Shown here piece by piece: positions 6,471 to 29,702 of a stretch of DNA of 64,000 bases. The translations under genes and the position numbers were made by a program. The first letter of the stretch is position 1. Each line of letters starts with the position of its first letter. Under the pieces are notes generated by a model. That model did no database searches. It was not told the origin of the DNA and was given only the letters and a program-made list of their open reading frames with translations. The DNA comes from Candidatus Omnitrophota bacterium (GTDB lineage: Bacteria; Omnitrophota; Gorgyraeia; B26-G9), in assembly GCA_018817585.1 (NCBI GenBank), contig JAHITE010000080.1:5774-69773 (forward strand), given 5' to 3'.

Positions 6471-6501
6471 TAGTTATGGGGCAGAAGAAAGGGGATAGAT
6501 T

Positions 6502-9500
6502 ATGAGGAAAATATTGTTTGCTTGTTTAGGATTAATGATCGGAGTGTTAAGCATTATACCGTGTGTTGGGGCAAAAGAAGTGGATATGTGTATTGCTTCT
6601 AAAACAATGTGTATGCCCAGCTATGTGGTACAGGAGGCTGCTTACATTGGTAAGGTAGAAGATGCTACTGTGTTTGTGGATACAAAATTAAAGATTGAAG
6701 TTTTAGCTGAGCAGCAGAGTAGCGTTCCTTTGTTTACTCAGGATGTGGCAATGATTAAAACCGCTTTACCTAAAGGCGTATTGCTGCTGCAGCGAGAAGG
6801 CAGGTATAATCTGCTTTTTCCGGGTAAAGGCAGTTATTCTGTTGGACTGCAATTCACCGCCTTGGTTAATCAGAAAAGTGATCGTAATATGCTGAATCTT
6901 GAGGTATTTCCGTCAGCGATTTCCACATTACAATTGGTGTTCGAGGGGATTGATCTGGATATTCAAAGCAGTCCGGCAATGAGCACGCAGATAAAAGCCA
7001 AAGGTAAAAACACGGAATTTACAGCTTATTTGGGAGCGGCTAAACAGATTGAAGTGAGTTGGTTTGCCAAGCCTACGGCTTTAGCCAAAGCAGATCTTTT
7101 GTTTAATTCAGAGAATAATACTCTGATTACTATATCCTCTGGCGTGATTAATACCCGGACTTTTTTAAATTACAAAGTTATTCAGGGGAAACTTTCTCAA
7201 TTTAATGTGTCTTTGCCGGAAAATATGAATCTGTTGACTGTTAAAGGCGAAAACCTGAAAAACTGGACATTAAAAAAAGAGAAGAATAAGCAGATTCTTA
7301 GCGTGGAATTAACAAAGGAAATCTCCGATACATATCAATTAGTGCTGGACGCGGAAGAAATAAAAGATAAGATTGAAGGTAATTATAGCACGTCGGATAT
7401 TATTTCTTTAGACTCTGAAAGGGAAAATGGCTATTACGCGTTTAAGGTAAAAGATGATTATAAACTGCGTTCTTTGCAGCGCGATGGAGTTAGTCAGCTG
7501 AATATCGCGGAATTACCGCAACAGCTAAAAGATGCCGGAGACGGCGAAGCAAATATTTCTTTAGCGTATCGTTTTTTACGTGATCCTAAAGAACTGATGA
7601 TTAATATTGAGAAAACAATGCCGGAAATATCCGCCCGGAATAATGTTTTTCTTGATGTGTCAGAAGAAGTAATGCGGCTGCTGATTATGACTGATTATAA
7701 GATTGAGAAAGCAGGGGTGTTTAATTTTAATCTGGAATTGCCCGGCGATATGGATGTTATTGATGTTAAAGGTTTAAATATTGAAAACTGGAAAGTAAAT
7801 CAAAAAGGGAATAGGCAGGATCTGGAAATCCAGCTGCGCACTAAGGCCATCGGGGATTATCGCTTATTAGTTAAGCTGGAAAAGCCGGTAAAAGATATTT
7901 ATCAGGATATTCAGATGCCGCAGGTAAATGTTTTAAATGTGGATAAGCTGACGGGTTTTATTGGTGTGGCTTGCGAGAGCAGTATTAATCTTAAAACAAA
8001 ACACCGCGGTAAGCTTACGGAAACAGCTTTATCAGATTTAATCGAGATTCCCGGGGAGAAAATCTATCCGAACTTAGCGTATAAGTTTATTACCCAGCCT
8101 TATGAACTGCAGCTGGCAGTAGAAAAGGTTGATCCGCGGGTAATGGCGGATGTCTTTACCTTTTTATCAGTGGGTGAAGGTTTGGTCCTGGTTAATTCAG
8201 CGGTAACATTTGATGTTTTATTTGCCGGAGTTGATCAGTTTGAAATTGTCTTACCTAATGATGTCAGCGGAGTGGATATCATGGGACAGGGAATTAAAGC
8301 CAAAGCAGAACGTTTAGAAGAAATGGATGTAAACGGTCAGAAGAAAAAAGTAAAAATATATACGATTTCTTTACATTCTAAAGTAAAGGGCAAGTATAAT
8401 CTTTACTGTGCCTATGAAAAAGTATTAAAAAATCTTTCGGAAAAAACAGAAATGCCGGCATTTCAGGTTCTTGGGGTCGAACGTCAGACCGGCAGTGTGG
8501 CCATTGGTCCAAGGGCAAATGTGGAAATTGAATTAGTTAATATTGACGGGGCCAGCCAGGTAGATGTTAAGGAATTACCGCAGGATAAACTTGCCGGCGC
8601 GGATATTCCGATATTATACGCTTTACAATATGTCCGCTATCCATATAGCGTGGGCTTAGACATTAAAAAGCACGAAGATGTCGCGGTATTGGTGGCGGTA
8701 GTTGAAGCAGCAAATATTACAACTGTTTTAGGTAAAGACGGGCAGATTATTGTCAGCGCGAAGTATCAGATTAAAAACAGAACAAAACAGTATTTAGACA
8801 TAGCTTTGCCTAAAAATGTGGAAATCTGGAGCACTTTTGTTGACGGCAAAGCGGTAAAACCCGCGAAAACCGAAGAAAATAAAATATTATTACCCTTGGT
8901 TAAGTATGAAGAAAAAGACCGCAGTTTTCCTGTGGAAATAATTTATGAAGTTAAGCGTTCTAAATTTTTCCTGTTTGGCAGGATAAATCTTACTGCGCCG
9001 CAGTTTGATATTCCGCTGACAAATGTTACCTGGGATGTGTATATGCCGTTTGGTTATAATTATTTTAATCTTAGCGGTAATCTGGAACCAGGTACAAGAG
9101 TTTTTGCTCAGGGCAGATGGAGGCAGCCGCAGGAACATATGGATAAAAGGATTATTGGCGGACTTAATGTTGAAAAGCTTGGGAGAGACATGCCCGCCAG
9201 GTCGCAAGAACTAATGGACTATGAGACCTGCGCGGATACATCGTTTTGTGATTTAAAAAAAGAAGCCTATACGCAGAAGCCCGCGCCAGAAATCTGGCAG
9301 AAAAAAGACCAGACATTTGTCTCAAATATAAATACTCAGACCGCGCGTTATAATCAGCAGTTAGCTCCGTCAAAAACCAAGCAAGTGGCAACCAAAGGCA
9401 GACAAAAAGGGGTATTACCGATTCATATTACCATTCCGACTGGAGGCAAACTCTATACATTTACCAAATTAATCAGCCGGGAGCAGCTAAAGATACATGC

Positions 9501-9633
9501 TTTTTATACTAAGAAATCAGGCAGACTATTGTTTTTGATTATTTTGTTCGCGGGCATCGCAATAATTATCCGCTATAAACAAAATGTAATAAAAACAATC
9601 CAAAATCTCAGCAGAAAAAACAAGCCGGAATAA
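6502..9633 (+). CDS. large secreted or surface protein with about three internal repeats of ~130 aa and a C-terminal TM anchor
   Basis: N-terminal signal peptide (MRKILFACLGLMIGVLSIIPCVGA). Repeated ...NLKNWTLKKEKNKQILSVELTK... / ...NIENWKVNQKGNRQDLEIQLRTK... / ...GQKKKVKIYTISLHSK... modules. C-terminal hydrophobic helix followed by a basic tail. Confidence 0.6.
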   Translation: MRKILFACLGLMIGVLSIIPCVGAKEVDMCIASKTMCMPSYVVQEAAYIGKVEDATVFVDTKLKIEVLAEQQSSVPLFTQDVAMIKTALPKGVLLLQREGRYNLLFPGKGSYSVGLQFTALVNQKSDRNMLNLEVFPSAISTLQLVFEGIDLDIQSSPAMSTQIKAKGKNTEFTAYLGAAKQIEVSWFAKPTALAKADLLFNSENNTLITISSGVINTRTFLNYKVIQGKLSQFNVSLPENMNLLTVKGENLKNWTLKKEKNKQILSVELTKEISDTYQLVLDAEEIKDKIEGNYSTSDIISLDSERENGYYAFKVKDDYKLRSLQRDGVSQLNIAELPQQLKDAGDGEANISLAYRFLRDPKELMINIEKTMPEISARNNVFLDVSEEVMRLLIMTDYKIEKAGVFNFNLELPGDMDVIDVKGLNIENWKVNQKGNRQDLEIQLRTKAIGDYRLLVKLEKPVKDIYQDIQMPQVNVLNVDKLTGFIGVACESSINLKTKHRGKLTETALSDLIEIPGEKIYPNLAYKFITQPYELQLAVEKVDPRVMADVFTFLSVGEGLVLVNSAVTFDVLFAGVDQFEIVLPNDVSGVDIMGQGIKAKAERLEEMDVNGQKKKVKIYTISLHSKVKGKYNLYCAYEKVLKNLSEKTEMPAFQVLGVERQTGSVAIGPRANVEIELVNIDGASQVDVKELPQDKLAGADIPILYALQYVRYPYSVGLDIKKHEDVAVLVAVVEAANITTVLGKDGQIIVSAKYQIKNRTKQYLDIALPKNVEIWSTFVDGKAVKPAKTEENKILLPLVKYEEKDRSFPVEIIYEVKRSKFFLFGRINLTAPQFDIPLTNVTWDVYMPFGYNYFNLSGNLEPGTRVFAQGRWRQPQEHMDKRIIGGLNVEKLGRDMPARSQELMDYETCADTSFCDLKKEAYTQKPAPEIWQKKDQTFVSNINTQTARYNQQLAPSKTKQVATKGRQKGVLPIHITIPTGGKLYTFTKLISREQLKIHAFYTKKSGRLLFLIILFAGIAIIIRYKQNVIKTIQNLSRKNKPE

Positions 9634-11278: not shown

Positions 11279-11287
11279 CTATTCTCA

Positions 11288-11429
11288 AGACGATAATTTA
11301 TGTTGCGGAGTCTCACTTCAAATAATTAAGGTCTACCGCGGCCGGGTAATGAATAAAATGCAGGCCAAAATCGTGTCCGAGCTTATCCGTTTTGCCCAAA
11401 AAGCAGGCATTACTCCCTCTAAAAGTTAA
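11288..11429 (+). pseudogene. remnant of a FixJ/NarL-type response regulator: only the last ~40 aa of the LuxR HTH
   Basis: ...VSLQIIKVYRGRVMNKMQAKIVSELIRFAQKAG closely matches the FixJ C-terminus (ISPRTVEVHRANVMAKMKAKSLPHLVRMA). No receiver domain lies upstream, because the region is occupied by the complete histidine kinase. Confidence 0.5.
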
Positions 11430-11503
11430 TTTCTTCAAAGATAATATTTATTCAAACCTCTTCAAAATCGCACAAAACATAATCTACCGCAAAATTCGGG
11501 ATG

Positions 11504-11547
11504 TATACCCAGGTACAATTGATTAAAATTTTTATTTCGCGCATAAT
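11504..11547 (+). promoter_or_regulatory. palindromic operator (tatacccaggtaca) abutting a sigma70-like promoter (-35 ttgatt, 17 bp spacer, -10 cataat)
   Basis: Copy 1 of a module repeated at 15563 and 18607 (see findings). Confidence 0.5.
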
Positions 11548-11820
11548 AATACTAGAGGTATTGTAAGTAAAAACTATGGACATTAAAAAATATCAAAATA
11601 AAAGGTTTTCGGCTGGGTGCTGTTTGGCAAGCGTTAATAATTGCCACAATATTAACAAGTTTATTTGCTTTTATAAGTTTTAAATGGTGGGTTTTTAGAA
11701 CCTTGCCCCATACGAATACGCGCCTAAGAGGAAAAAACCGCCGATTGATATTCAATTATCCGGGTTTATATACTTGAGAGTTCTTCCGGGAACTAATTCC
11801 ACTGAATTGAAAGCGGTAGA

Positions 11821-14800
11821 ATGACTATGAAGATTTTAATGATGACAAACACTTATACTCCCATGGTTGGAGGAATAGAACAATCTATTCATTCCTTTAC
11901 TCTTGAGTTTGAAAAATTGGGCCATGAAGTTGTTATTGTCGCGCCTGAATGCGCGGGCGCGCCGCCTGATGAGGTTGGGGTGATACGCCTGCGCGCGATT
12001 CAAAAATTCAACCATTCAAATTTTTCCATTGCTTTACCGATGTCGAGTCTTTTACCGGAACTTATGAAAAAGTTTATGCCGGATATTATTCATTGCCACC
12101 ACCCTTTCTGGATGGGGGATATTGCCCTGCGGTTAAGCAGCCAATCCCGTGTTCCGCTGGTGTTTACTTATCATACGATGTTTGAACAGCATATGCATTA
12201 TCTGCCGATTCCAAATGAAGGGATTAAGCATTTTATCATTGAACTTTTTGCCGGTTACGCTAATTTGGCGAATCAGGTGATTGTGCCCAGCGAAAGTGTC
12301 CGCGCTATACTTTTAAACCGCGGGGTCAAAACCCCGATAGAAGTGGTCCCGACCGGAGTGGACCTGCGAAAATTTTCTCAAGGAGATGGAAATATTATCC
12401 GTAAACGCTTGGGTATCCCTTTAAATGCCGTTGTGGCCGGGTGTGTCAGCAGGCTGGTTTTAGAAAAAAATTTAGAATTCTTGAGCCGCAGTGTTGCTGG
12501 TTACTTAAAGAAAGAAAGTAAAGCGCACTTTTTATTGGTTGGAGAAGGGCCGCTTAAGGATCTGATCAAGAAAATCTATAAGGAGGAAGGAGCAGAGAAA
12601 AGGCTGCATCTGACCGGAGTGCTTAAGGGACAGGACCTGGTTGATTGTTATCACGCGATGGATATTTTTACTTTCGCTTCTTTAAGTGAGACGCAGGGGA
12701 TTGTTTTGGTTGAAGCGATGGCTGCCGGAGTTCCGGTTGTGGCTGTTGATGCTCCCGGCATTCGTGAAGTTGTTAAAGATGGTTACAATGGCCGGTTGAT
12801 ATTCGGAGAAAACCAAGACAATTTTTCAAAAGCGGTAGCGTGGTGCCTTAACCAGCCTCCTGGTGAATTCAAGCGGATGAAGGAAAATGCCAAAGCGACA
12901 ACAAAAGAATTCACCGCGGATCTTTGCGCTAAAAAGATGCTTAAGGTTTATCAGGATGTTATGATCAAAGAATACGTTTCTTCGGACCTCAAAAATAGTG
13001 CCTGGGAATCTCTGTCCGGACGGCTAAAGAGTGAGTGGGGGATGTTTAAAAATATGATGCAGGCAGGAGGCGCGGCCATAACAGAAAAGGCAATTTTAAG
13101 GGAACCTATTATTAAGAAAAGAAAAAGAGGGTTAGCCAATCTGCCTAAACTGTTATCTTTGAGTGAATGGTCAGCAAAACTTATGAGGCTATCTTTTTCG
13201 GAAGAGTCAGAAACTCAGCCGGGGTTAGTTTTTATACAAATTGATGGCTTGTCACAAGCTCAGCTTAAAAAAGCAATTAAAAACAATCAAATGCCTTTTC
13301 TTCACGGCCTTATTAAAAAAAAATATTATAAAATTTATCCTCAATATTCCGGGTTACCTTCAAGTACTCCGTCAGTTCAGGGTGAATTATTTTATGGCAT
13401 TAAACACATTGTTCCGGCATTCTCATTTTTCGACAAAAAAGCTCATAAAGTATTTAAAATGTATGACAGTGATGCGGTAGTTGAAATTGAGAGAAGACTT
13501 TCGGAACAGGGAGTCGGCCTTTTAAAAGACGGCAGTTCATATTCTAATATATATTCCGGGGGAGCGCGGGAAACACATTTTTGTGCCGCATTTTTAGGCT
13601 GGAGCCGGATATGGAAGGATGTTAACCCGAATAGCTTTTTTATTTTAATAGTAACTCACTTCTACGTGTTTTTAAGGATGCTGGTTTTAATATCTTGGGA
13701 AATTATTTTAGGAATTTTTGATTTTGGCAGAGATATTTTTAAAAAAAATAATTTTATTGATGAATTAAAATTTATTTATCTGCGTTCACTTATTTGTATA
13801 CATCTTAGAGAATTGGTTTCTTTGGGTGCTAAAATTGATATCGCGCGCGGATTGCCGATTATTTATTTAAATTTTTTAGGTTATGATGAAAACGCGCATC
13901 ATAGCGGGCCTTCATCGCGAGTTGCGCATTGGGCTTTAAAAGGGATAGATCGAGCTATTGAAAAGATCTATTATAATGCTATGCATTCACCTTGCCGCAG
14001 CTATGATATCTGGATCTGTTCTGACCATGGACAGGAGGATTCCATTTCATACATTAGCAAATATGGCAGGACAGTTCAGGAAGCTGTCGCGGAAGTTTTT
14101 AGAGAATTTGATACAACGATTGAAGGTGTTACTTTTGATAAAAATGGAGAACAGCTGCAGCGCGCCCGTTTATTGGGGTTTTTTTATGTTGAAAAAAAAT
14201 TTAGTAACGCGAATTTTGTCCAGGATAATTCTTTGGATAATAAGCTTGTAGTTACAGCTATCGGCCCGACGGGAAATATTTATTTGCCAAGAGAAATGAA
14301 TAATGTTGATAAACATTATTTCGCGAAAGCATTGGTAGCGAAAGCTAAAATTCCTGTTGTTATGCTGCCAAAAGAGCAGGGGCAAGTCTGTGTCTGGACA
14401 GAAGAAGGCGAATTTAATTTACCTAAGGATGCTAAGAAAATTTTAGGAGATGATCACCCGTTCTTATCTCAGGCAACAGAAGACTTAATTAGTATTTGTC
14501 ATCATGCTAACACAGGAGATTTTACTTTTATGGGATTTAAACCTGGGGCAAAAGAATTGATTACTTTTCCGTTGGAAAAAGGTTCTCATGCTGGGCCTGC
14601 CCCAGAAGAAACGAATGCTTTTGCGTTACTTCCGGTTGATGTTATTCCTAGGCAGAGAAAGAGAACGTATTTAACCCCGACGGATTTGCATTTCGCGGCA
14701 CTGCGATTTCTAAAACGCCCGATGCCGCAAGCGGGCAAACAATACTTTGACAATTTGATCCGCGAAAAATTTGAGGCTGCTCCGAAAACAATTCGGGTCA

Positions 14801-15534
14801 TGACTTATAATGCGCACTCTTGTATTGGACTGGATGGTAAAATTTCACCGGAAAGGATTGCCCGCGTTATTGGGCGGCATGAGCCGGATATTGTGGCGCT
14901 TCAAGAACTGGATATGTGGCGTAAACGTACCGGTGAAGTGGACCAACCGCATCTGATCGCTAAAGAATTAGAGATGATATATCATTTTCACCCCTCTGTG
15001 GTTGTTGATGAGGAGCGCTACGGCAATGCTGTGTTAAGCCGCTATCCAATGGAGTTAATGCGTGCAGGGAGGCTGCCTGGTACTATCAAAATCTCCATGG
15101 CGGAACCTCGAGGAGTTATTTGGACAGTTATAAGCATTGCGGGGATAAGGATAAATTTTTTTAACACGCATCTTGGGCTTTTCCCTCGGGAAAGGATTCG
15201 TCAAGCAAAGGCTTTGCTTGGTTCGGAATGGATAGCGCATCCGGTTTGCCATGGCCCGGTTATTTTGTGCGGGGATTTTAACGCTTTGCCTAATTCGCGG
15301 TTATGCCGTACAGTAAAGGAGTTTTTTCGAGATGCTCAAGAAGAACTTGAACATCACAGCCCCAAAGCGACTTGGTCTAGTTATTACCCCGTCGGAAGGA
15401 TTGATCATGTTTTTATCAGCCCTGAAATCGAGGTGACTCGAGTGGAAGTCTCTAGGACAGACCTGGATAAAATCGCTTCAGATCACCTTCCGCTGATTGT
15501 TGACATAAAAATCAGGTTACCAAAGAACGAATAA
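11821..15534 (+). CDS. tri-domain enzyme: GT4 glycosyltransferase + alkaline-phosphatase-superfamily phosphodiesterase/phosphotransferase + EEP phosphodiesterase
   Basis: N-terminus: GT4 (GT-B) motifs (TNTYTPMVGGIEQ, ETQGIVLVEAMAAGVPVVAVD). Middle: AP-superfamily metal-site motifs (VFIQIDGLS...SSTPSVQGE...YDENAHHSGPSS) with an embedded hydrophobic segment. C-terminus: EEP fold (VMTYNAHS...VALQELD...GDFNALPNS...IDHVFIS). Confidence 0.8.
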   Translation: MTMKILMMTNTYTPMVGGIEQSIHSFTLEFEKLGHEVVIVAPECAGAPPDEVGVIRLRAIQKFNHSNFSIALPMSSLLPELMKKFMPDIIHCHHPFWMGDIALRLSSQSRVPLVFTYHTMFEQHMHYLPIPNEGIKHFIIELFAGYANLANQVIVPSESVRAILLNRGVKTPIEVVPTGVDLRKFSQGDGNIIRKRLGIPLNAVVAGCVSRLVLEKNLEFLSRSVAGYLKKESKAHFLLVGEGPLKDLIKKIYKEEGAEKRLHLTGVLKGQDLVDCYHAMDIFTFASLSETQGIVLVEAMAAGVPVVAVDAPGIREVVKDGYNGRLIFGENQDNFSKAVAWCLNQPPGEFKRMKENAKATTKEFTADLCAKKMLKVYQDVMIKEYVSSDLKNSAWESLSGRLKSEWGMFKNMMQAGGAAITEKAILREPIIKKRKRGLANLPKLLSLSEWSAKLMRLSFSEESETQPGLVFIQIDGLSQAQLKKAIKNNQMPFLHGLIKKKYYKIYPQYSGLPSSTPSVQGELFYGIKHIVPAFSFFDKKAHKVFKMYDSDAVVEIERRLSEQGVGLLKDGSSYSNIYSGGARETHFCAAFLGWSRIWKDVNPNSFFILIVTHFYVFLRMLVLISWEIILGIFDFGRDIFKKNNFIDELKFIYLRSLICIHLRELVSLGAKIDIARGLPIIYLNFLGYDENAHHSGPSSRVAHWALKGIDRAIEKIYYNAMHSPCRSYDIWICSDHGQEDSISYISKYGRTVQEAVAEVFREFDTTIEGVTFDKNGEQLQRARLLGFFYVEKKFSNANFVQDNSLDNKLVVTAIGPTGNIYLPREMNNVDKHYFAKALVAKAKIPVVMLPKEQGQVCVWTEEGEFNLPKDAKKILGDDHPFLSQATEDLISICHHANTGDFTFMGFKPGAKELITFPLEKGSHAGPAPEETNAFALLPVDVIPRQRKRTYLTPTDLHFAALRFLKRPMPQAGKQYFDNLIREKFEAAPKTIRVMTYNAHSCIGLDGKISPERIARVIGRHEPDIVALQELDMWRKRTGEVDQPHLIAKELEMIYHFHPSVVVDEERYGNAVLSRYPMELMRAGRLPGTIKISMAEPRGVIWTVISIAGIRINFFNTHLGLFPRERIRQAKALLGSEWIAHPVCHGPVILCGDFNALPNSRLCRTVKEFFRDAQEELEHHSPKATWSSYYPVGRIDHVFISPEIEVTRVEVSRTDLDKIASDHLPLIVDIKIRLPKNE

Positions 15535-15562
15535 GGCTATTGGCATGGAGAAATTATATATT

Positions 15563-15605
15563 ATACCCAGGTACAATTGATATGATCACGCGGTTTTATT
15601 AAAAT
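15563..15605 (+). promoter_or_regulatory. palindromic operator (tatacccaggtaca) + promoter (-35 ttgata, 17 bp, -10 taaaat), copy 2
   Basis: Same 20-mer as at 11504. Located 25-65 bp upstream of the DUF2934 gene. Confidence 0.5.
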
Positions 15606-15629
15606 AAAATTAGAAGTAAGAAGAGAGAG

Positions 15630-15860
15630 ATGGTGATTGTAAAAAAGGAAGGGACTAAAATGATCTTAAATAAAACACAAATTGGCAAAAGAAAAAGAAT
15701 CGAAAAAAAAGCATTTGAGTTATTTGAAAAAAGAGGATATTCGCAGGGAAACGATTTGGATGATTGGTTTAAGGCGGAACAGCTTGTGCAAATGGAAAAT
15801 GCGGAGAATATTAAATTAGTTTATGAGAAGGTAAAAAAAGTAAGGAAAGGCTTTGTGTGA
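15630..15860 (+). CDS. DUF2934 family small protein
   Basis: ...IEKKAFELFEKRGYSQGNDLDDWFKAEQ matches the DUF2934 signature (AYxLWExRG...G.DLEDWL.AE). The start could be the internal Met at 15660. Confidence 0.6.
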   Translation: MVIVKKEGTKMILNKTQIGKRKRIEKKAFELFEKRGYSQGNDLDDWFKAEQLVQMENAENIKLVYEKVKKVRKGFV

Positions 15861-16014
15861 TTTGTATAATCGCCGCACAAACAGAACATAAGATAAGAAA
15901 GCCAGTAACCTTGACTGTCAATGGCTACATGTGCGGTGTTAAAAGTTTTTAAAGAAGGGGTTTATGAGTTTTGCGCATGGTATAGAATTTTAAGTGAACG
16001 CTTGAATAAAAAAT

Positions 16015-16575
16015 ATGGGGAAGGATGGAGAACTAATGGCAAATCCTTTGTCTAATGAAAAAGAAATTTATGAATACATAAAAATCAAAGGGAGTGTTGT
16101 GCCCCAGCCGGCTTGGGATTTTATGTACCGTCGAGTCGGTGATAATGTAACCGCGATTATCCTCCTTTGCCGGCATTGGCTGGCAAAGAAAGAATTTATG
16201 CCGGTTCAGGAAGCAAAGAGAATTATAAACTGGATCAACGATATGAAAAACGTGGTCAGCTTGATAACCGCGCCCTCAAAAGAGAACTCGTTTTTCCCCC
16301 AATTTGATGATTTCATTCCGCTTGACCCAATTGCACAAGAACTGATTAATCCTTACGTTGGAAGTGATGTGGTTATTATGGAGTCAGCCATAGAGGCGGT
16401 AATGCTTGCCTCTGCTAATCCTGCTCCGGTTTCGCCGGAAATCACGCAAAAGGTTCTGAATCACGCTCAAGCGATGAAAGAGTTTATGGAAAAAATTAAA
16501 GATTTAACCCGTGGAAAGAATCCGAGGGAAAATACCGCAATCTATACGATTCGTTTAGTGACGGATTGTTTCTAA
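16015..16575 (+). CDS. hypothetical N-terminal domain ORF, probably the 5' part of the downstream PAS-GGDEF-HD-GYP gene separated by a frameshift
   Basis: No recognisable domain. Frame +2 relative to this ORF reads a PAS N-cap (EGKYRNLYDSFSDGLFLTDLKG) that continues into the next gene without an ATG. Confidence 0.45.
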   Translation: MGKDGELMANPLSNEKEIYEYIKIKGSVVPQPAWDFMYRRVGDNVTAIILLCRHWLAKKEFMPVQEAKRIINWINDMKNVVSLITAPSKENSFFPQFDDFIPLDPIAQELINPYVGSDVVIMESAIEAVMLASANPAPVSPEITQKVLNHAQAMKEFMEKIKDLTRGKNPRENTAIYTIRLVTDCF

Positions 16576-18584
16576 CTGATTTGAAAGGTAGTTTTATCGA
16601 TATGAATCAGGCTTGTCTGGATATGTTTGGTTATACCAAGGAAGAAATCAAATTGCATAAGATTATTGATACGATTAGTGACGGTATAACTGTTTCCGAT
16701 ATGCAGGGCCAGTTTATGGTATTCAATGAGAAAATGCGGGAAATTAGCGGATATACTATAGACGAAGTAAACCGGCAAAAAGACTTTGATGTTCTTATTC
16801 ATCCTCAGAGTAAGGATCATCAAGAAGTGCTTAAAAGGCTAAACGAAATTTTTTCACAAGGCACAACGCGCGAAACTCAAACGACGATTCAGGCAAAGGA
16901 CGGTTCGGAAAAAACACTTTTGGTATCAACGGCTTTATTTAATTATAAAAATCGCGATATGTTTTTAAGTGTCTGGCGCGATATCACTGAGCGCAAGCGG
17001 TTAGAGAATGTGCTGAATGATTCGGAAATTCGCTTTCGCCGGCTTTTTGAAACAGCCCAAGACGGGATATTGATAATGGAGGAGGATACCGGCCAAATAA
17101 CTGAAGTTAATCCATTTTTGGTTGATATGCTGGGGTATTCCCGCGAGGAGCTCTTGGGGAAAAAACTATGGGAAGTAGGCGCTTTTGTGGATGTTGATAA
17201 AAGCAAAACAGCATTTATTCATTTACAAAGCAAGGGATATATCCGTTATGAAAATTTACCGCTTCAGGCCAAAGACGGCCATTTGGTTAGTGTAGAGTTT
17301 ATCAGTAACAGCTATAGAGTTGGGCGCAAGAAAGTTATTCAATGTAATATTCGCAATATAACCGAGCGCAGACGTTTGGAGATAGCGCGAGAGTATTTGC
17401 ATAATGAAATAGAAAAATCAAACCAGAAATTGGAACAGTTAGCCCTAAAGGATTCACATACCGGCCTTTATAACCATCGCTATCTTAAAGAGGCGCTTGA
17501 AGTGAATCTTGCCCGGGCACAGAGACAGTTTGCCCCGGTTTCCGTAATAATGATGGATATGGATCATTTTAAGTCAATAAACGATGTATACGGACATGTG
17601 TTTGGCGATTTGATATTAACGCAGTTTGCCGCCCGGCTGACTAAAACTGTCCGCCCTTATGATGCGGTTATTCGTTATGGCGGCGAAGAATTTATTGTAG
17701 TATCTCCTGATCTGGATAGAGCGGGCGCTTTAGTCTTAGCTCAAAGAATCCTAAAAACGGTCAGCTTATTTCCTTTTGGCGATAGTACCCATTCAATCAA
17801 GCTAACGTTAAGCTTAGCGGTTGTTTCTTATCCGGAAGATGTTATAGATATAAACACGGATTTAGTAGATCCTGTCGACCGGATCTTGAATAAGGCCAAA
17901 GAAGACGGCGGTAACAGGGTATATTCATCTTTGGACACAAAAAATGGGTCTGTTACAGCCCGGGAAACCGCGACAATACAGTTAATTAAGAAAAAAATAG
18001 AGAAACTTGCTGTCCGGGCAAACCATAGTTTAATTGAAGAGGCTTTGGCATTTGCCAGGAAAATAAAATTAAAGGACAACTATAACGGCGAGCAGGTGGA
18101 ACGAACCGCTGGTTGGGCAGTTAAAATTTCTCGGGCATTGCATTTTTCTAAAGATAAAATAGAGCTTATTCGGCAAGCGGCAATGCTGCATGATTTGGGA
18201 AAAGCCGGGATTAATGAGCATATATTGCGTAAAAATTCCAAGCTGGACACAGAAGAATTCGAAGAAATTAAAAAACACCCTCAAATAGGTGTGGACATTA
18301 TAAGTCCGATTCATTCTTTGTATCCGATAAAACCATTTCTTCTTTATCATCATGAACGATGGGACGGGAAAGGGTATCCCAAAGGATTGGCTGGGGAGAG
18401 TATCCCTTTAGGGGCCAGGATCATTGCCATCGCGGATGTATATCAAGCATTGGTTTCCAATCGTCCTTACCGCAAGGCTTATTCCAAAGAAAATGCTGTA
18501 AAAATAATAAGAAAAGCCGCAGGTACTCAATTTGATCCGGATATTGTAAAGGCATGTTTAATGGTTTTAAAGAACGAGTTATAA
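16566..18584 (+). CDS. PAS-PAS-PAS-GGDEF-HD-GYP c-di-GMP turnover protein (coordinates as given by the ORF track; the true 5' end probably lies upstream)
   Basis: GGDEF (RYGGEEF), HD-GYP (HDLGKAG, HHERWDGKGYP) and several PAS segments. TTG start at 16566. The in-frame upstream sequence back to 16500 still encodes a PAS N-cap. Confidence 0.85.
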   Translation: MFLTDLKGSFIDMNQACLDMFGYTKEEIKLHKIIDTISDGITVSDMQGQFMVFNEKMREISGYTIDEVNRQKDFDVLIHPQSKDHQEVLKRLNEIFSQGTTRETQTTIQAKDGSEKTLLVSTALFNYKNRDMFLSVWRDITERKRLENVLNDSEIRFRRLFETAQDGILIMEEDTGQITEVNPFLVDMLGYSREELLGKKLWEVGAFVDVDKSKTAFIHLQSKGYIRYENLPLQAKDGHLVSVEFISNSYRVGRKKVIQCNIRNITERRRLEIAREYLHNEIEKSNQKLEQLALKDSHTGLYNHRYLKEALEVNLARAQRQFAPVSVIMMDMDHFKSINDVYGHVFGDLILTQFAARLTKTVRPYDAVIRYGGEEFIVVSPDLDRAGALVLAQRILKTVSLFPFGDSTHSIKLTLSLAVVSYPEDVIDINTDLVDPVDRILNKAKEDGGNRVYSSLDTKNGSVTARETATIQLIKKKIEKLAVRANHSLIEEALAFARKIKLKDNYNGEQVERTAGWAVKISRALHFSKDKIELIRQAAMLHDLGKAGINEHILRKNSKLDTEEFEEIKKHPQIGVDIISPIHSLYPIKPFLLYHHERWDGKGYPKGLAGESIPLGARIIAIADVYQALVSNRPYRKAYSKENAVKIIRKAAGTQFDPDIVKACLMVLKNEL

Positions 18585-18606: not shown

Positions 18607-18650
18607 TATACCTAGGTATAATTGATTTAATTTTTTGTCGCGCCTATAAT
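18607..18650 (+). promoter_or_regulatory. perfect 14-bp palindrome (tatacctaggtata) + promoter (-35 ttgatt, 17 bp, -10 tataat), copy 3
   Basis: Same module as copies 1 and 2. Here the palindrome is perfect and the -10 is consensus. Confidence 0.55.
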
Positions 18651-18685: not shown

Positions 18686-18988
18686 ATGTCAAGAAAAGTA
18701 AAAAAATCTTTATTCTCGATGATGATGAATCAGTGCGCAGATCGCTGAGCATGCTTTTGGTTACGTATGGATTTGCAGTTAATGCTTTTTCCTGCGCAAA
18801 TGATTTTTTGTGCCTGACAGCGTTCCCGGGTGTTTGATCCTGGATATTCATATGCCGGGAATGGACGGCTGGGAGGTTTTAAGGCGGATAGTTAAATCAG
18901 GGGATAGACGGCCGGCCGGTGAAAACACGGAGTGGGTGTTAAAAACAGGAGCTGTAGTGGTTGAGCTTGATAAGGAAGGGAGAAAATG
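18686..18988 (+). pseudogene. FixJ-type receiver (REC) domain gene interrupted by two 1-nt frameshifts at homopolymers
   Basis: Restoring 1 nt in the A7 run (18700-18706) and in ccggg (18826-18830) gives MSRKVKKIFILDDDESVRRSLSMLLVTYGFAVNAFSCANDFL...PGCLILDIHMPGMDGWEVLRRI, a typical receiver. The stop overlaps the start of the next kinase gene (ATGA). Confidence 0.6.
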
Positions 18989-20041
18989 AAAATAAAGGCT
19001 GTTAAGAAAAGATTATCAGTACAGGCAGTACAAAAGAACGTATTAGAAGTTTCCGAGGACCGCTACCGCAGGCTTTTTGAAACAGCGCAAGACGGGATAT
19101 TAATCCTTGCCGCGAATACAGGAAAGATCAAAGATGTAAACCCGTTTTTGCTAAATATGCTGGGGTATGCTAAAAAAGATATTTTAGAAAAAAAATTATG
19201 GCAGATCGGCGCTTTTAAGGATGCCAAGGCATCAAAAAAAGCCTTTTTAGAGTTGCAAACCAAAGAATACGTCCGGTATGAGGACCTGCCTTTGGAAACA
19301 AAAGACGGACACAAAATCGCGGTTGAATTCGTCAGCAATGTTTACTTAGTTGACCAGAAAAGGGTGATCCAGTGTAATATCCGTGATATTACAGTCCGGA
19401 AGGAAGCTGAAGAGAGCATTCAGCGTTCTTTAAAAGAAAAAGAAGCTCTTTTGAAGGAGCTTCATCACCGGGTTAAAAATAACCTGCAAATTATTTCAGG
19501 CCTGCTGCAGTTAAAGCTTTTTAACTCTAAAAATAAAGAAGTTATTGATGTTTTTAAACAAGTACAGGAACGTATCAGAGTCATGGCTCTTGTTCATCAG
19601 AAGCTTTGTGAATCAAAAGATTTTATGAGTATTGATATCTCTGAATATATCAATGAATTAGTTAATGAATTAATTTTAGCTTACGGTATTGACCGGAAAA
19701 AAATTATGGTTAATGTTAATGTGGTCAAGGTGTTGTTAAAAATAGATATTGCGGTCCCTTGCGGGCTGATCATTAATGAACTGCTTACCAATTCTTTTAA
19801 ATATGCTTTTCCGGAAGACAGGAAAGGAGAAATCGCTATATCGCTGAGTTCAAACCGTAAAGGTATGTTAGAAATACTGGTCAGTGACAATGGTATTGGA
19901 TTTTCCAAAGGGTTTAATATTTATAAGGTTAAAACCATGGGGTTAAGAATTGTTATCGATACTATACAAACTCAACTGGGCGGGAAAATTAGCTTTAGCA
20001 GTGCTGGAGGAACATGGTTTAAGCTCACCTTTCAAAGTTAA
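18986..20041 (+). CDS. PAS sensor histidine kinase of the HWE/HisKA_2 type
   Basis: The PAS segment resembles that of the GGDEF protein. HisKA_2 signature (HHRVKNNLQII) and an HATPase C-terminus (DNGIGF). Confidence 0.85.
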   Translation: MKIKAVKKRLSVQAVQKNVLEVSEDRYRRLFETAQDGILILAANTGKIKDVNPFLLNMLGYAKKDILEKKLWQIGAFKDAKASKKAFLELQTKEYVRYEDLPLETKDGHKIAVEFVSNVYLVDQKRVIQCNIRDITVRKEAEESIQRSLKEKEALLKELHHRVKNNLQIISGLLQLKLFNSKNKEVIDVFKQVQERIRVMALVHQKLCESKDFMSIDISEYINELVNELILAYGIDRKKIMVNVNVVKVLLKIDIAVPCGLIINELLTNSFKYAFPEDRKGEIAISLSSNRKGMLEILVSDNGIGFSKGFNIYKVKTMGLRIVIDTIQTQLGGKISFSSAGGTWFKLTFQS

Positions 20042-20052
20042 CAGGAAAAAGC

Positions 20053-20457
20053 ATGAGGGTTGTTGTGGAAAAAAATATTTTAATTGTTGAAGATGAGGCA
20101 ATAATAGCATCCAGTTTAAAGCTGTGTTTAAACAATCTTGGCTACAATGTGTTTAAAGTCGTCTCTAATGGAGAAGATGCCATAGAGAGTTCGGAGAAAA
20201 ATAATCCGGATGTAATCCTTATGGATATTAGATTGCGCGGGCAAAAGAACGGATATGAAACTGTAATCGCGATCCGGAAAAGCTCCAATACTCCGGTGAT
20301 CTATTTGACAGGAGGAGACCCGGATCAAATAGACGAAAAAGCAAAAGATACTAAGCCGTATGATTATATTATCAAGCCGTTTGATATAGCTGTGTTAACG
20401 GAGAAAATAGAAAAAATTACCGATAAAAAAAATAAAAAACAAACGAAGAAAAAATAA
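20053..20457 (+). CDS. single-domain response regulator (CheY-like receiver) with a Lys-rich tail
   Basis: ILIVEDEAIIASS...DVILMDIRL...KP receiver motifs. Lies 12 bp after the kinase gene. Confidence 0.85.
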   Translation: MRVVVEKNILIVEDEAIIASSLKLCLNNLGYNVFKVVSNGEDAIESSEKNNPDVILMDIRLRGQKNGYETVIAIRKSSNTPVIYLTGGDPDQIDEKAKDTKPYDYIIKPFDIAVLTEKIEKITDKKNKKQTKKK

Positions 20458-20657
20458 AGGAAGTTAATTATAGAAAGGAGAAAACAAACAATGGGTGTAA
20501 TGCTATGAGATGTGGGTGAGGCTGCCTTTCATTAGCGTGGTGATCTTAGTCGGGTTGGGGTGCTTTGTAGAGAAGCGGAATGTTTAGGGAATAAAAGGTA
20601 AAAACGCGGGGAGAGAGTTTCTTCCATACAGATTTACAAAAAAGGAAGGTGTGTGTT

Positions 20658-21437
20658 ATGAGTAAAAATTATTTTAAAATGTTTTTTTCAATGACCGTTG
20701 CTGTTTTGTTGTTTTCGAGCGTATTGGCGTATGCCTCTGAAATGGATGCCCGGATTGAATCATCCGCGAAGCAGTCCTACGTGTTCAAAACGTATCTCAA
20801 AAACGACTCTATTAAAATCCAGTCTATGGATGGCGCTGTCACCTTGACAGGAACGGTTGCCGAGGAATCGCATATATTATTAGCTGGAGAGACTTTGGCG
20901 AGCCTGCCAGGGGTCAAAAAAGTGGATAATAATCTGGTATTCGATGGTAAGTCTCAGGAAAAAAATTCTGACGGTTGGATCAGCCTGCAGATCAAAAGTT
21001 CTCTGCTTTTTAACCGTAATGTAAGCGGGATCAATACTCAGGTTTTCGTAAAGGACGGAATCGTAACCTTAAAAGGCGAAGCCGCTAATCAGGCGCAAAA
21101 AGATCTGGCCGGCGCGTATTCCAGAGACGTTAGCGGGGTTAAAGATGTAAAAAATGAAATAACAATAGCTAAAATACCAGCCGAACCAAAACAGACAATG
21201 GGTGAGAAAATAGATGACGCGTCGATTACCGCGCAAGTCAAGGTAGCTTTCTTGTCGCATCATTCAACCAGTGCTTTCAAAACCGGAGTTCAGACAAATA
21301 ACGGAGTAGTAACTTTAACCGGCAATGCCGTCAACTCAGCGTCAAAAGACATGGCCGGCAAGGTAGCTAATGATGTAAATGGCGTTACACAGGTAATTAA
21401 TAATATGACTGTAGATCAAATAATATCAAAGAACTAA
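20658..21437 (+). CDS. periplasmic BON-domain protein (OsmY-like, three BON repeats)
   Basis: Signal peptide plus repeated ...DG.VTLTG.V......AG..A..V.GV..V.N.. BON units. Confidence 0.75.
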   Translation: MSKNYFKMFFSMTVAVLLFSSVLAYASEMDARIESSAKQSYVFKTYLKNDSIKIQSMDGAVTLTGTVAEESHILLAGETLASLPGVKKVDNNLVFDGKSQEKNSDGWISLQIKSSLLFNRNVSGINTQVFVKDGIVTLKGEAANQAQKDLAGAYSRDVSGVKDVKNEITIAKIPAEPKQTMGEKIDDASITAQVKVAFLSHHSTSAFKTGVQTNNGVVTLTGNAVNSASKDMAGKVANDVNGVTQVINNMTVDQIISKN

Positions 21438-21526: not shown

Positions 21527-21694
21527 ATGTTGAATTATTCAGTTACGTTTTTTGTTATTGCCATTATCGCGGCGTTGTTAGGTTTTACCGGGATCGCGGG
21601 GGCGGCTATGGATATTGCTAAGATTTTGTTTTTTGTATTCTTGATTTTAGCAATTGTTATGTTAGTTTTGGGAAGAAAAGGAACGTCTGTATGA
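21527..21694 (+). CDS. UPF0391/DUF1328 small membrane protein (not in the ORF track, 55 aa)
   Basis: [51 protein letters not shown] matches the YtjA/DUF1328 pattern. An RBS aaaaggag lies 6 nt upstream. Confidence 0.6.
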
Positions 21695-21717
21695 ATGCGA
21701 AAAATGAGAGGTTGAAA

Positions 21718-28227: not shown

Positions 28228-28240
28228 TTTATTGTTCCTC

Positions 28241-29689: not shown

Positions 29690-29702
29690 TATCGGCTCCT
29701 GA

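Follow-up and report, generated by a model that had tools for sequence, protein, structure and literature searches.

A protein of Candidatus Omnitrophota uniting GT4 glycosyltransferase, NPP-type and EEP phosphoesterase domains, and its possible role in phospholipid to glycolipid conversion

The protein encoded at 11821–15534 of the window (the whole 64-kb stretch of DNA that was analysed) unites a GT4 glycosyltransferase, an NPP-type phosphodiesterase and an endonuclease/exonuclease/phosphatase (EEP) domain. Comparison with related loci indicates that it is a Rosetta-stone protein in which the two final genes of a conserved 4–5 gene cluster have been joined. By analogy with the PlcP-Agt system, the removal of phospholipid head-groups could be coupled here to diacylglycerol glycosylation; this reading is preferred tentatively, at a little under even confidence. 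The fused protein family is functionally uncharacterised, and a literature search returned no paper describing this gene system or protein family.

The open reading frame and its domains

The frame is uninterrupted and specifies 1237 aa when read from ATG 11821. Translation more likely begins at the second ATG, 11827 (MKILMM...), since homologues begin with MKILMM there and the database protein P0001, 100% identical to the window protein, has 1235 aa. The coding features are as follows.

11821..15534 (+): tri-domain ORF, 1237 aa from ATG 11821 or 1235 aa from ATG 11827
11821..12975 (+): GT4 (GT-B, retaining-type) glycosyltransferase domain, aa 1–385, PF13439 and PF00534
12976..13215 (+): linker, aa 386–465, poorly conserved in the homologue alignment
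13216..14685 (+): NPP-type alkaline-phosphatase-superfamily phosphodiesterase domain, aa ~466–955, PF01663, AF2 model and Foldseek
13627..13848 (+): hydrophobic helical insertion in the NPP fold, aa 603–676, AF2 model, Kyte-Doolittle profile and homologue alignment
14788..15510 (+): EEP domain, aa ~990–1230, PF03372

These limits refine the roughly correct boundaries proposed in the sequence-only reading of this DNA, which had recognised three catalytic folds in one frame. An assembly artefact, which that reading had considered, is ruled out because the same fusion is found in over 100 independent protein clusters of Omnitrophota and Planctomycetota (40–76% identity). All three folds are catalytically intact and matched in Pfam above the curated cut-offs, and the motifs quoted earlier (SSTPS, YDENAHHSGP, GDFN, D-H) are present and stay conserved when the query is aligned with 90 full-length homologues; all counts out of 91 come from this alignment.

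The GT4 domain comprises Glyco_transf_4 (aa 16–183, 123.8 bits) and Glycos_transf_1 (aa 192–359, 120.2 bits). The E-x7-E motif is formed by E290 (90/91) and E298 (91/91); G17/G18, H93/H94, R211 and K216 are also conserved. Among NCBIfam models the highest score is that of alpha-monoglucosyl-diacylglycerol synthase (Mgs, NF049988, a monotopic GT4), with which the GT-B fold and E-x7-E are shared. This model aligns over the full length and ranks first for the window GT4 (160 bits), for an unfused Rheinheimera GT4 (154 bits) and for the GT4 of the sister system described below (146 bits), although all three scores lie far under the 400-bit equivalog cut-off. Unlike Mgs, the window GT4 shares its polypeptide with two phosphoesterase domains, and its diacylglycerol acceptor is putative.

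The middle domain matches Phosphodiest (PF01663) at aa 469–741 with 28.0 bits (curated cut-off 23). Foldseek matches of its AF2 model (pLDDT 88.7, pTM 0.90) are phosphonoacetate hydrolase (PhnA, 1ei6), Xac NPP (2gsn), ENPP6 (5egh), ENPP7 (5tcd) and autotaxin (4zg6), the nearest known structures. The fold, the two-metal site and the Thr nucleophile are common to these enzymes and the window domain, whereas identity is only 10–14%, TM-scores are 0.4–0.6, and the window domain carries a hydrophobic insertion with invariant residues and an EEP fusion and lacks a signal peptide. Seven residues are invariant (91/91 each): T516 (SSTPS), the predicted nucleophile, and D475, D689 and H693 (YDENAHHSGP), D735 and H736 (SDHG) and H923, the predicted ligands of two metals.

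The insertion (~75 residues) is modelled as three long helices (model residues H163–172, H174–199 and H205–236) and contains invariant E627, R655, D673 and R676. Its maximum 19-aa Kyte-Doolittle value is 2.35 in the query, with a median of 2.1 and values of at least 1.6 in 98% of 169 homologues; the hydrophobic segment previously described as splitting this domain is present at aa ~604–635, and its hydrophobicity is conserved. Outside the insertion (606–624), the most hydrophobic stretches fall in domain cores. The stretch lies within the NPP fold and cannot be a single-pass transmembrane helix; it may serve as a monotopic membrane anchor or as a lid that binds lipid, and its invariant charged residues make an active-site lid possible instead of an anchor. 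Neither a signal peptide nor an N-terminal (polytopic) membrane domain is present in the window protein, which makes the cytoplasmic membrane face its probable site of action.

The EEP domain matches Exo_endo_phos (PF03372) at aa 994–1222 with 80.4 bits, and the Pfam search of the tri-domain protein gave no match to any further phosphoesterase family. Its catalytic residues are N997 (91/91), E1029 (90/91), D1152 and N1154 of GDFN (90/91), and D1221 (90/91) and H1222 (91/91) of SDH; H1117 and D1195 are likewise conserved. The best profile matches in the PDB (4ruw, 3teb, 3g6s, 3l1w and 4c1r, the mannosyl-6-phosphatase BT3783) have the same catalytic Asn/Glu/Asp/His set; most of these relatives have no assigned function, and BT3783 acts on a glycan. 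Sphingomyelinases, including beta-haemolysin, are matched only marginally (E ~3e-3 to 1e-2). A weak NCBIfam match was obtained to PRK05421, an EEP-family model that we take to cover E. coli YbhP, whose gene presumably lies in the clsB cardiolipin-synthase operon. At planctomycete locus L001 the tri-domain gene is followed ~3 kb downstream by genes for a cardiolipin synthase and a stand-alone EEP protein.

The conserved gene cluster

The cluster order is a membrane protein, either DedA (DedA/VTT, PF09335) or GtrA (PF04138), X, sometimes an Aas-like acyltransferase, GT4 and NPP+EEP. The acyltransferase combines a PlsC-type domain (PF01553) with a carrier-protein domain, and its best NCBIfam matches are acyl-ACP–phospholipid O-acyltransferases (Aas). 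X, the best-conserved member, is a ~750-aa protein without a Pfam match; its model of moderate quality (pLDDT 66.8) has an (alpha/alpha)6 glycoside-hydrolase/phosphorylase-like fold.

The unfused GT4 / NPP+EEP pair was found in at least 254 species, and the operon is spread across many phyla; with the fused form common in two phyla, the earlier description of the architecture as unusual was overstated. For the 49 unfused loci whose upstream sequence spans 4.5 kb or more, tblastn detected GT4 at 45, X at 40 and DedA at 24; where present, GT4 lies nearly always directly upstream of NPP+EEP. X was detected at 7 of 8 fused loci, GtrA at 4 and the acyltransferase at 3. In unfused relatives the GT4 stop overlaps or abuts the NPP+EEP start at the position of the linker, which corresponds to the GT4 C-terminal tail and the NPP N-terminus of the separate genes. 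The NPP and EEP domains are almost always fused to each other. On a tree of 155 proteins ~13 fusion/fission changes are placed, indicating that both events were repeated during the history of the cluster. A sister system carries a GtrA–X fusion and, instead of NPP+EEP, a Hydrolase_4 alpha/beta-hydrolase joined to its GT4.

Beyond the core cluster the neighbouring genes vary. Locus L001 is situated among six HSP20 genes, and HSP20 is also encoded a short way upstream of the operon at L017 and L043, at a distance of one or two genes from DedA. Monoglucosyl-diacylglycerol is known as a 'heat shock lipid' in cyanobacteria and interacts with a small HSP (PMC5028025).

Proposed conversion of phospholipid to glycolipid

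In the scheme that we infer, the reactions would proceed on the cytoplasmic side of the inner membrane, where the NPP-type domain could be held at the bilayer by its helical insertion. This domain would act like a phospholipase C, cleaving a glycerophospholipid at its phosphodiester via a covalent Thr516 intermediate and yielding diacylglycerol and a phospho-head-group. The EEP domain could release phosphate by hydrolysis of the phospho-head-group or of another type of lipid phosphoester. The GT4 domain would glycosylate the diacylglycerol from an NDP-sugar; the net conversion would be phospholipid to alpha-glycosyl-diacylglycerol. With complete clusters, X, in some cases encoded as a fusion with the GtrA membrane domain, could edit the sugar head-group or turn it over, redistribution of the lipid could fall to DedA or GtrA, and the acyltransferase could re-acylate lyso-forms.

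A precedent for such coupling is PlcP-Agt, by which marine and soil bacteria renovate phospholipid to glycolipid and in which a phospholipase C able to generate diacylglycerol is genetically coupled to a diacylglycerol glycosyltransferase, often as adjacent genes (PMC4796936). In the window the coupling extends to gene fusion. PlcP belongs to the metallophosphoesterase family, whereas the phosphoesterases here are NPP-type and EEP domains, and the cluster has the additional conserved X, DedA or GtrA and acyltransferase. No link to phosphate starvation is seen for this cluster type. A non-rigorous inspection by eye of 18 mostly gammaproteobacterial upstream regions, in 3 of which the inspected stretch was DedA coding sequence, revealed no Pho-box-like repeats.

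The proposed conversion is consistent with the NPP model, whose nearest solved relatives include ENPP6, ENPP7 and autotaxin, enzymes that cleave lipid phosphodiesters, and with the first rank of the Mgs model in three versions of GT4. The conserved hydrophobic insertion, the operon counts with their repeated fusions and fissions, the identities of the partner genes, the make-up of the sister system, the HSP20 neighbours and the PlcP-Agt precedent also count in its favour. It coincides with the lipid head-group remodelling suggested in the sequence-only reading; the self-contained one-protein line also envisaged there does not hold, as the protein is a fusion of two cluster genes and X is deleted at the window locus. 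Against the conversion speak the soluble acceptor of MshA (3c4q), the best PDB match of GT4 by sequence, the nearest EEP structures, which are not sphingomyelinase/PLC enzymes, the likeness of X to soluble-disaccharide enzymes (GH94, GH65, GH15), the charged residues of an insertion that may be an active-site lid, the low GT4 score relative to the equivalog cut-off, the upstream regions free of Pho-box-like repeats and the variable genes around the core cluster.

Alternative functions

Some of this evidence would suit a soluble alpha-glycoside, made and turned over by the cluster as a compatible solute. Like SPS, MshA and GlgM, GT4 would transfer its sugar to a small phosphorylated acceptor; phosphate would be stripped by NPP and EEP, and X would break the glycoside down once stress ends. 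The GT4 matches to MshA (110 bits), a sucrose-phosphate synthase domain and maltose-1-phosphate synthase (6tvp), the resemblance of X to GH15 and GH65 (glucosylglycerol, kojibiose and maltose phosphorylases), the EEP match to a sugar phosphatase (4c1r) and the window neighbours (BON-domain protein, MscS-like channel, ice-binding-like protein and DUF2934 genes) fit this role. It is nevertheless unlikely: the conserved hydrophobic insertion, the DedA/GtrA partners and GtrA-X fusion, the Aas-like acyltransferase and the exchange of NPP+EEP for a lipase-type alpha/beta-hydrolase are left unexplained, and one phosphomonoesterase would suffice where two different phosphoesterases are nearly always fused.

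The same membrane partners could instead point to polyprenyl-phosphate-linked sugars or undecaprenyl-phosphate (C55-P) recycling rather than glycerolipids, with C55-P(-sugar) handled by GtrA or DedA, the lipid-linked sugar being the substrate of X, and a sugar-phosphate-lipid diester or pyrophosphate being cleaved by NPP and EEP. A GtrA/DPMS transmembrane domain adjoins X or is fused to it, DedA-family proteins are implicated in C55-P transport, and many GT4 enzymes use C55-PP-linked acceptors, PglJ, TuaC and WcaL being among the lower-scoring matches. However, the best GT4 model is a diacylglycerol glucosyltransferase and not a C55-PP-sugar enzyme, the acyltransferase and alpha/beta-hydrolase indicate acyl-glycerolipids, and the conserved neighbourhood lacks a priming phosphoglycosyltransferase, Wzx/Wzy and an ABC exporter, which makes this target distinctly improbable.

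Assembly of a phosphoglycolipid or teichoic-acid-like polymer, as suggested earlier, is very unlikely. Here the middle domain, then regarded as EptA/LtaS-like, would transfer a phospho-alcohol (e.g. glycerol-phosphate from PG) onto the GT4 product instead of hydrolysing it, and the diacylglycerol by-product would be recycled by GT4. The nucleophile and metal site are intact and GT4 is glycolipid-synthase-like, and enzymes of this superfamily with a Ser/Thr nucleophile can be phosphotransferases (LtaS, EptA, OpgB). The latter share this broad superfamily, metal site and nucleophile; their fold, however, is of the sulfatase type (PF00884), which the NPP/PhnA-type window protein does not match, and their catalytic domain is extracytoplasmic, after an N-terminal polytopic membrane domain, two features that the window protein lacks. 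Known teichoic and phosphoethanolamine transfers take place outside the cytoplasmic membrane. No polymerase, flippase-ligase, export machinery or wall-polymer genes were found in the conserved neighbourhood.

The window locus

Upstream of the tri-domain gene the following features are present.

11504..11547 (+): promoter module copy 1, TATACCCAGGTACAATTGAT, overlapping -35-like TTGATT, 17 nt and -10-like CATAAT
11616..11702 (+): 3'-end relic of a GtrA-like gene (PF04138, ...FISFKWWVFR), tblastn E 4e-6 to 1.4e-5
11732..11820 (+): relic of gene X, last ~30 codons, tblastn with aa 725–754 of X from locus L006
11745..11774 (+): second promoter-like site just upstream of the ORF, TTGATA-18-TATACT, 10/12 consensus match

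The GtrA relic has stop codons upstream in frame and is supported by DNA alignment to L006; the X relic (67% identity, E 1e-6) agrees with the DNA alignment too. Elsewhere in the window tblastn gave no further match to X, and the remainder of the gene (~2.2 kb) was deleted in this lineage. Although X is lost and GtrA is reduced to a relic directly upstream, the notion that the gene is a functionless leftover of a dismantled cluster, confined to the source genome, is the least probable of all: the 3.7-kb frame is intact in a genome of ~40% GC, every catalytic residue is kept, only 2 of 149 columns conserved at 97% or more deviate (family median 1), the upstream promoter module is present, and X is also missing within 8–10 kb at other fused loci.

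The palindromic promoter module reported earlier ahead of the ORF is confirmed: copies of TATACCCAGGTACAATTGAT are present at 11504, 15562 and 18607 (2 mismatches at the last), with no occurrence expected by chance, and the module is also found in another genome (L086, 355–420). Promoter-like consensus sites of the kind at 11745..11774 are not more numerous in the region than in shuffled sequence. Copy 1 would drive a ~270-nt leader across both gene relics, and the shared module together with the neighbouring genes suggests stress-responsive expression.

Domain composition of the window protein

The reading frame of the tri-domain protein is uninterrupted, and all three folds exceed the curated thresholds in a Pfam search.

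Features of the tri-domain protein (Pfam scores with cut-offs)
11821-15534, + strand: tri-domain ORF, 1237 codons
aa 16-183: Glyco_transf_4 (PF13439), 123.8 bits, cut-off 28.5
aa 192-359: Glycos_transf_1 (PF00534), 120.2 bits, cut-off 26.4
aa 469-741: type-I phosphodiesterase/NPP (PF01663), 28.0 bits, cut-off 23
aa 994-1222: EEP (PF03372), 80.4 bits, cut-off 24.5

The true start of the gene is probably the second ATG (11827), because the database protein identical to it (P0001) has 1235 aa and the relatives open with MKILMM.

In an alignment of the window protein with 90 full-length homologues of 40-76% identity (n = 91), the catalytic residues expected of all three domains are invariant or almost so. 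The GT4 domain retains G17/G18, H93/H94, the nucleotide-phosphate-binding R211 (91/91) and K216 (90/91), and the E-x7-E motif E290-x7-E298 (90/91 and 91/91, respectively). The NPP-type site is complete in all 91 sequences: D475, T516 (SSTPS), D689-x3-H693 (YDENAHHSGP), D735-H736 and H923. T516 is presumably the nucleophile and the six Asp/His residues the two-metal ligands, as assigned to the positions of the Xac NPP structure. Conserved EEP residues are N997, E1029, H1117, D1152, N1154 (GDFN), D1195 and D1221-H1222; the catalytic set among them (N997, E1029, D1152, N1154, D1221, H1222) is found in 90-91 of the 91 sequences.

The window protein belongs to the GT4, PF01663/NPP and PF03372/EEP families, with all tested defining features present. 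The Pfam matches and the near-invariant residues bear out the sequence-only reading of three folds with catalytic motifs in one ORF. At 149 near-invariant columns, the protein has 2 deviations against a family median of 1, and by this count the gene is without decay. In public annotation, the family appears under generic names ('glycosyltransferase', 'EEP family metal-dependent hydrolase', 'hypothetical protein').

Middle domain and its insertion

An AlphaFold2 model of aa 441-960, built from 43 sequences, reached pLDDT 88.7 and pTM 0.90. Among solved structures, it comes closest to phosphonoacetate hydrolase, Xanthomonas NPP, ENPP6, ENPP7 and autotaxin (Foldseek E 5e-13 to 1e-8), with PhnA, Xac NPP and ENPP6 at 4.8e-13 to 1e-10. 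According to the model, the middle domain is an NPP-type, two-metal enzyme with a Thr nucleophile. Its earlier likening to EptA/LtaS does not hold: the sulfatase-type family PF00884 is not matched in the window protein by Pfam, PF01663 is matched instead, and the structural neighbours are of the NPP/PhnA kind, so that both family and fold differ.

The hydrophobic segment seen earlier in this domain is part of an insertion of ~75 residues (aa 603-676), which the model folds into three long helices. The hydrophobic character of its first ~32 residues is shared across the family. The maximal 19-residue Kyte-Doolittle value of the insertion is 2.35 in the window protein (median 2.1), and it is at least 1.6 in 98% of 169 homologues. 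E627, R655, D673 and R676 are invariant charged residues within it. Since the NPP fold continues on either side, the insertion cannot be a single membrane-spanning helix; it could anchor the protein in monotopic or re-entrant fashion, or form a lid that binds lipid.

No further strongly hydrophobic stretch is present outside the domain cores of the window protein; the topology of LtaS/EptA, in which an extracytoplasmic catalytic domain goes with an N-terminal polytopic membrane domain, is not seen, the N-terminus being the GT4 domain. A location on the cytoplasmic side is probable for the entire protein, because other hydrophobic stretches outside the domain cores are lacking and an NDP-sugar-using GT4 occupies the N-terminus.

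Nearest relatives of the GT4 and EEP domains

The top NCBIfam model for the GT4 domain is alpha-monoglucosyl-diacylglycerol synthase (NF049988), aligned over its full length at 160.3 bits; this is well under the 400-bit equivalog cut-off, and the domain is not an Mgs equivalog by that model. MshA is the second model (110 bits) and the closest entry in a PDB sequence search. The EEP profile is closest to 4ruw, 3teb, 3g6s and 3l1w, structural-genomics entries whose function is not known, and to the Bacteroides mannosyl-6-phosphatase 4c1r. Matches to sphingomyelinase and beta-haemolysin are marginal (E 3e-3 for 3k55 and 0.013 for 7cne), those to the structural-genomics entries and the sugar phosphatase being far better. 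A defence-system reading was rejected, as PF20706 (GT4-conflict) scored 19.3 bits against a cut-off of 26 and PADLOC was negative; its models matched neither the tri-domain protein nor X, DedA or the acyltransferase of the cluster described below.

Distribution and lability of the fusion

A full-protein search found the three-domain architecture again in about 100 clusters, those named being from Omnitrophota or Planctomycetota. More than 100 clusters from independent assemblies carry the fusion in one ORF, as proposed in the sequence-only reading, and an assembly error or frameshift is thereby ruled out. The NPP+EEP part used as a query retrieved at least 2002 proteins. With the NPP domain as query, phmmer was run exhaustively against 1.84 billion representatives and gave 484 clusters at E<=1e-30; among the best 150 of these, 95 have the size of NPP+EEP proteins (~800 aa), 14 that of three-domain proteins and 5 that of GT4+NPP proteins, and 36 are shorter.

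In a scan of one genome per species, an NPP-like domain was encoded in at least 254 species. The phyla include Omnitrophota, Planctomycetota, Desulfobacterota, Sumerlaeota, Nitrospirota, Nitrospinota, Verrucomicrobiota and Alpha-/Gammaproteobacteria; Rheinheimera hassiensis, Rheinheimera sp. EpRS3 and Kineobactrum sediminis are among the cultured carriers. Fused proteins are interleaved with unfused NPP+EEP proteins of up to 70% identity, and about 13 fusion/fission changes are needed on a neighbour-joining tree of 155 proteins. By these comparisons, the tri-domain fusion is real, common and labile. Its repeated occurrence is strong genomic evidence that the three enzyme activities would share one pathway.

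Other architectures were observed as well (loci L072, L081 and L028; proteins P0032, P0034 and P0100-P0106). The NPP domain can stand alone, with the EEP encoded by a separate nearby gene, and GT4+NPP proteins without EEP exist, at the planctomycete-type locus L005 also without an adjoining EEP gene. On account of these NPP-alone and EEP-less forms, the EEP is the module that is dispensed with most readily.

Conserved gene cluster, protein X and the sister operon

The layout of the cluster was read from 80 fetched loci, and partners were counted by tblastn, independently of ORF calling. Usually NPP+EEP directly follows a GT4 gene whose product (~430 aa) shares 45-50% identity with the window GT4 domain; the GT4 stop codon and the NPP+EEP start codon often overlap, and the gene for X (~750 aa) precedes the GT4 gene. 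A DedA/VTT membrane protein heads the cluster in many Proteobacteria and Desulfobacterota. In Rheinheimera hassiensis the operon (L041 5609-12385) has the order dedA-X-GT4-NPP/EEP.

Partner genes at loci with at least 4.5 kb of upstream sequence
Unfused loci (n = 49): GT4 45, X 40, DedA 24, GtrA-like 1, acyltransferase 2
Fused loci (n = 8): GT4 8, X 7, DedA 0, GtrA-like 4, acyltransferase 3

The acyltransferase (488 aa) consists of carrier-protein and PlsC-type domains, and its best NCBIfam models are the Aas-type acyl-ACP--phospholipid O-acyltransferases.

Of all cluster members, X is conserved best (50-77% identity across phyla); it is present at L041 6382-8631 and at 52 other loci. Its homologues number at least 4796, every one annotated as 'hypothetical', and neither a single sequence nor a profile of X gave a match in Pfam, NCBIfam or PDB. 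A model of moderate confidence (pLDDT 66.8) comprises a beta-sandwich, an (alpha/alpha)6-like barrel and a C-terminal beta domain, and its Foldseek neighbours are GH94, GH15, GH65, GH116, GH52 and GH63 enzymes. The N-terminal ~110 aa combine extreme conservation with low model confidence and may serve for interaction with other proteins. On the basis of the model, X is a candidate new glycoside hydrolase/phosphorylase family.

The nearest GT4 outside the family, ~55% identical to the window GT4 domain, is fused, in place of NPP+EEP, to an alpha/beta-hydrolase of the Hydrolase_4 family, a family of the lysophospholipase/monoacylglycerol-lipase type. It belongs to a sister operon encoding a GtrA-X fusion (891-918 aa), an acyltransferase and the GT4-hydrolase (L086 3794-10118; L087 3854-10163, its GtrA-fused X at 3854-6529; L088). 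The sister acyltransferase, with carrier-protein and PlsC/Aas-like domains, is 69% identical to that of the cluster. X can therefore be membrane-tethered, as the GtrA-X fusion indicates, and the GT4-hydrolase implies that a carboxyl-esterase module can take the place of the phosphoesterase module.

Besides response regulators and occasional HSP20, no recurrent neighbours were found outside the core cluster. Two planctomycete-type loci have a sigma-54-activator response regulator shortly before the cluster (L005 8407-9906, L090 3126-4595), and these regulators may point to sigma-54-dependent control. In L090, a LysE-family gene adjoins the regulator; another is located downstream, on the opposite strand, in L089.

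Upstream region and genomic surroundings

X is missing from the 64-kb window by tblastn; it may be encoded elsewhere in the source genome. Two relics lie within 390 bp upstream of the tri-domain ORF:
11616-11702, + strand: GtrA-like relic, last ~28 codons, with stop codons ahead
11732-11820, + strand: X relic, last ~30 codons

They are collinear with the intact GtrA-X-fusion layout of the closest relative (L006). As these remaining 3' relics show, this lineage has lost ~2.2 kb of X by deletion, together with the 5' portion of GtrA.

The ORF is now preceded by a promoter module, in which TATACCyAGGTAyAATTGAT overlaps a TTGAT(T) -35 box, followed after 17 nt by a TAtAAT-like -10 box and a TTAGAAGTAAGA-like leader.

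Copies of the promoter module in the window
11504-11547: ahead of the tri-domain gene
15562-15605: ahead of the DUF2934 and GGDEF-HD-GYP genes
18607-18650: ahead of the HK-RR-BON genes

Another genome has the same module as well (L086 355-420); there it is followed by a response regulator and stress genes, and these in turn by the sister operon. The module resembles the signature of a putative regulon. Rfam gave no known RNA or riboswitch match at E<=1 in 11280-16050, which covers the long leader, and only weak inverted repeats were found upstream. In a non-rigorous inspection by eye of 18 operon upstream regions, mostly gammaproteobacterial and three of them DedA coding sequence, no Pho-box-like repeats were seen.

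Downstream of the window gene are encoded a DUF2934 protein (66 aa), a PAS-GGDEF-HD-GYP protein, a histidine kinase with a response regulator, a triple-BON protein, an ice-binding-like PEP-CTERM protein and an MscS-like channel (15660-15860, 16566-18584, 18986-20457, 20649-21437, 21691-22596, 23549-24586). This run looks like a stress or envelope island. A planctomycete orthologue (in the region 4072-19128 of L001, on an 8.78-Mb contig) sits between two HSP20 gene triplets, near genes for DnaJ, an HtrA-like protease and YfdX, with cardiolipin synthase and stand-alone EEP genes ~3 kb downstream. In two other phyla (L017, L043), HSP20 lies close upstream of the operon, 1-2 genes from DedA. A link of the cluster to stress is no more than suggested; in cyanobacteria, monoglucosyl-DAG is reported to be a 'heat shock lipid' interacting with a small HSP (PMC5028025).

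Possible pathway and alternatives

The tri-domain protein could remove the head group of a phospholipid and glycosylate the resulting diacylglycerol (DAG). This assignment is tentative and somewhat short of probable, and its substrates, its sugar donor, the sequence of its steps and what triggers it are all putative. At the inner face of the membrane, the NPP domain would cleave a glycerophospholipid in a phospholipase-C-like reaction via Thr516, giving diacylglycerol and a phospho-head-group. The EEP domain would then hydrolyse the phospho-head-group monoester, or a second class of lipid phosphoester, and the GT4 domain would glycosylate the diacylglycerol.

Consistent with action on lipids are the resemblance of the GT4 to a DAG glucosyltransferase, the enzymes with activity on lipids among the relatives of the NPP fold, the conservation of the hydrophobic insertion and the near-obligate NPP+EEP fusion, which suits two successive phosphoester cleavages. 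The partners point the same way: DedA, GtrA, the Aas-like acyltransferase, the Hydrolase_4 alpha/beta-hydrolase and the neighbouring cardiolipin synthase. PlcP is presumably of the metallophosphoesterase family, and no PlcP-type metallophosphoesterase is among the Pfam matches of the window protein. The PlcP-Agt lipid-renovation pair (PMC4796936) follows the same logic, which would be realized here with unrelated phosphoesterases. By the features tested, the window protein falls outside the Mgs equivalog, LtaS/EptA, PlcP and the PADLOC defence models.

A soluble alpha-glycoside or compatible-solute pathway would agree with the soluble-sugar relatives of X, the MshA and SPS-like matches of the GT4 and the osmotic/cold neighbour genes; it is unlikely, since it leaves the membrane features and the lipid-type partners unexplained. 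A polyprenyl-phosphate-linked substrate, hinted at by GtrA and DedA, is decidedly unlikely, glycerolipids being favoured by the best GT4 model and the acyl-lipid partners. The phosphoglycolipid or teichoic-like assembly proposed in the sequence-only reading is chemically possible if the NPP domain transfers and does not hydrolyse, but the NPP-type fold, the probable cytoplasmic location and the absence of polymer machinery make it very unlikely. That the gene is a non-functional remnant in its source genome, as the loss of X at the locus might suggest, is hardly to be expected of an intact, decay-free ORF.

A full-text literature search found no paper describing the fusion or the cluster. What is new is the coupling of phosphoesterase and glycosyltransferase from other enzyme families, in an uncharacterised cluster with the Pfam-less family X. 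In its widest form the phospholipid-to-glycolipid proposal is doubtful: the cluster would be a widespread, undescribed stress-response pathway in which alpha-glycosyl glycolipid replaces phospholipid at the cytoplasmic face of the membrane via phosphoesterases unrelated to PlcP, and the X proteins (at least 4,800, covered by no Pfam model) would be a new family of glycoside hydrolases/phosphorylases acting on a lipid-linked sugar. If lipid renovation is correct, the cluster would represent a second, non-homologous phospholipid-to-glycolipid route, of consequence for how many environmental bacteria economize on phosphorus and cope with membrane stress, and would supply the first function for the large family X and for a DedA subfamily. 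Hundreds of species carry the cluster, cultivable Rheinheimera, Kineobactrum and Marinobacter among them, and the cluster members all bear generic annotation only. The lipid hypothesis is directly testable, because cultivable hosts possess the unfused operon.

Other genes in the window

Several further genes were observed in the window:
2899-5094, - strand: 731-aa ORF without a Pfam match
5771-6460, + strand: IS200-like Y1 transposase gene, adjoining the next ORF
6502-9633, + strand: 1043-aa ORF without a Pfam match
25972-31993, - strand: glycan cluster

The glycan cluster encodes a 750-aa GT4-containing protein, two GH130 (mannoside phosphorylase-like) proteins and a GT4 fused to a mannose-6-phosphate-isomerase/cupin domain.
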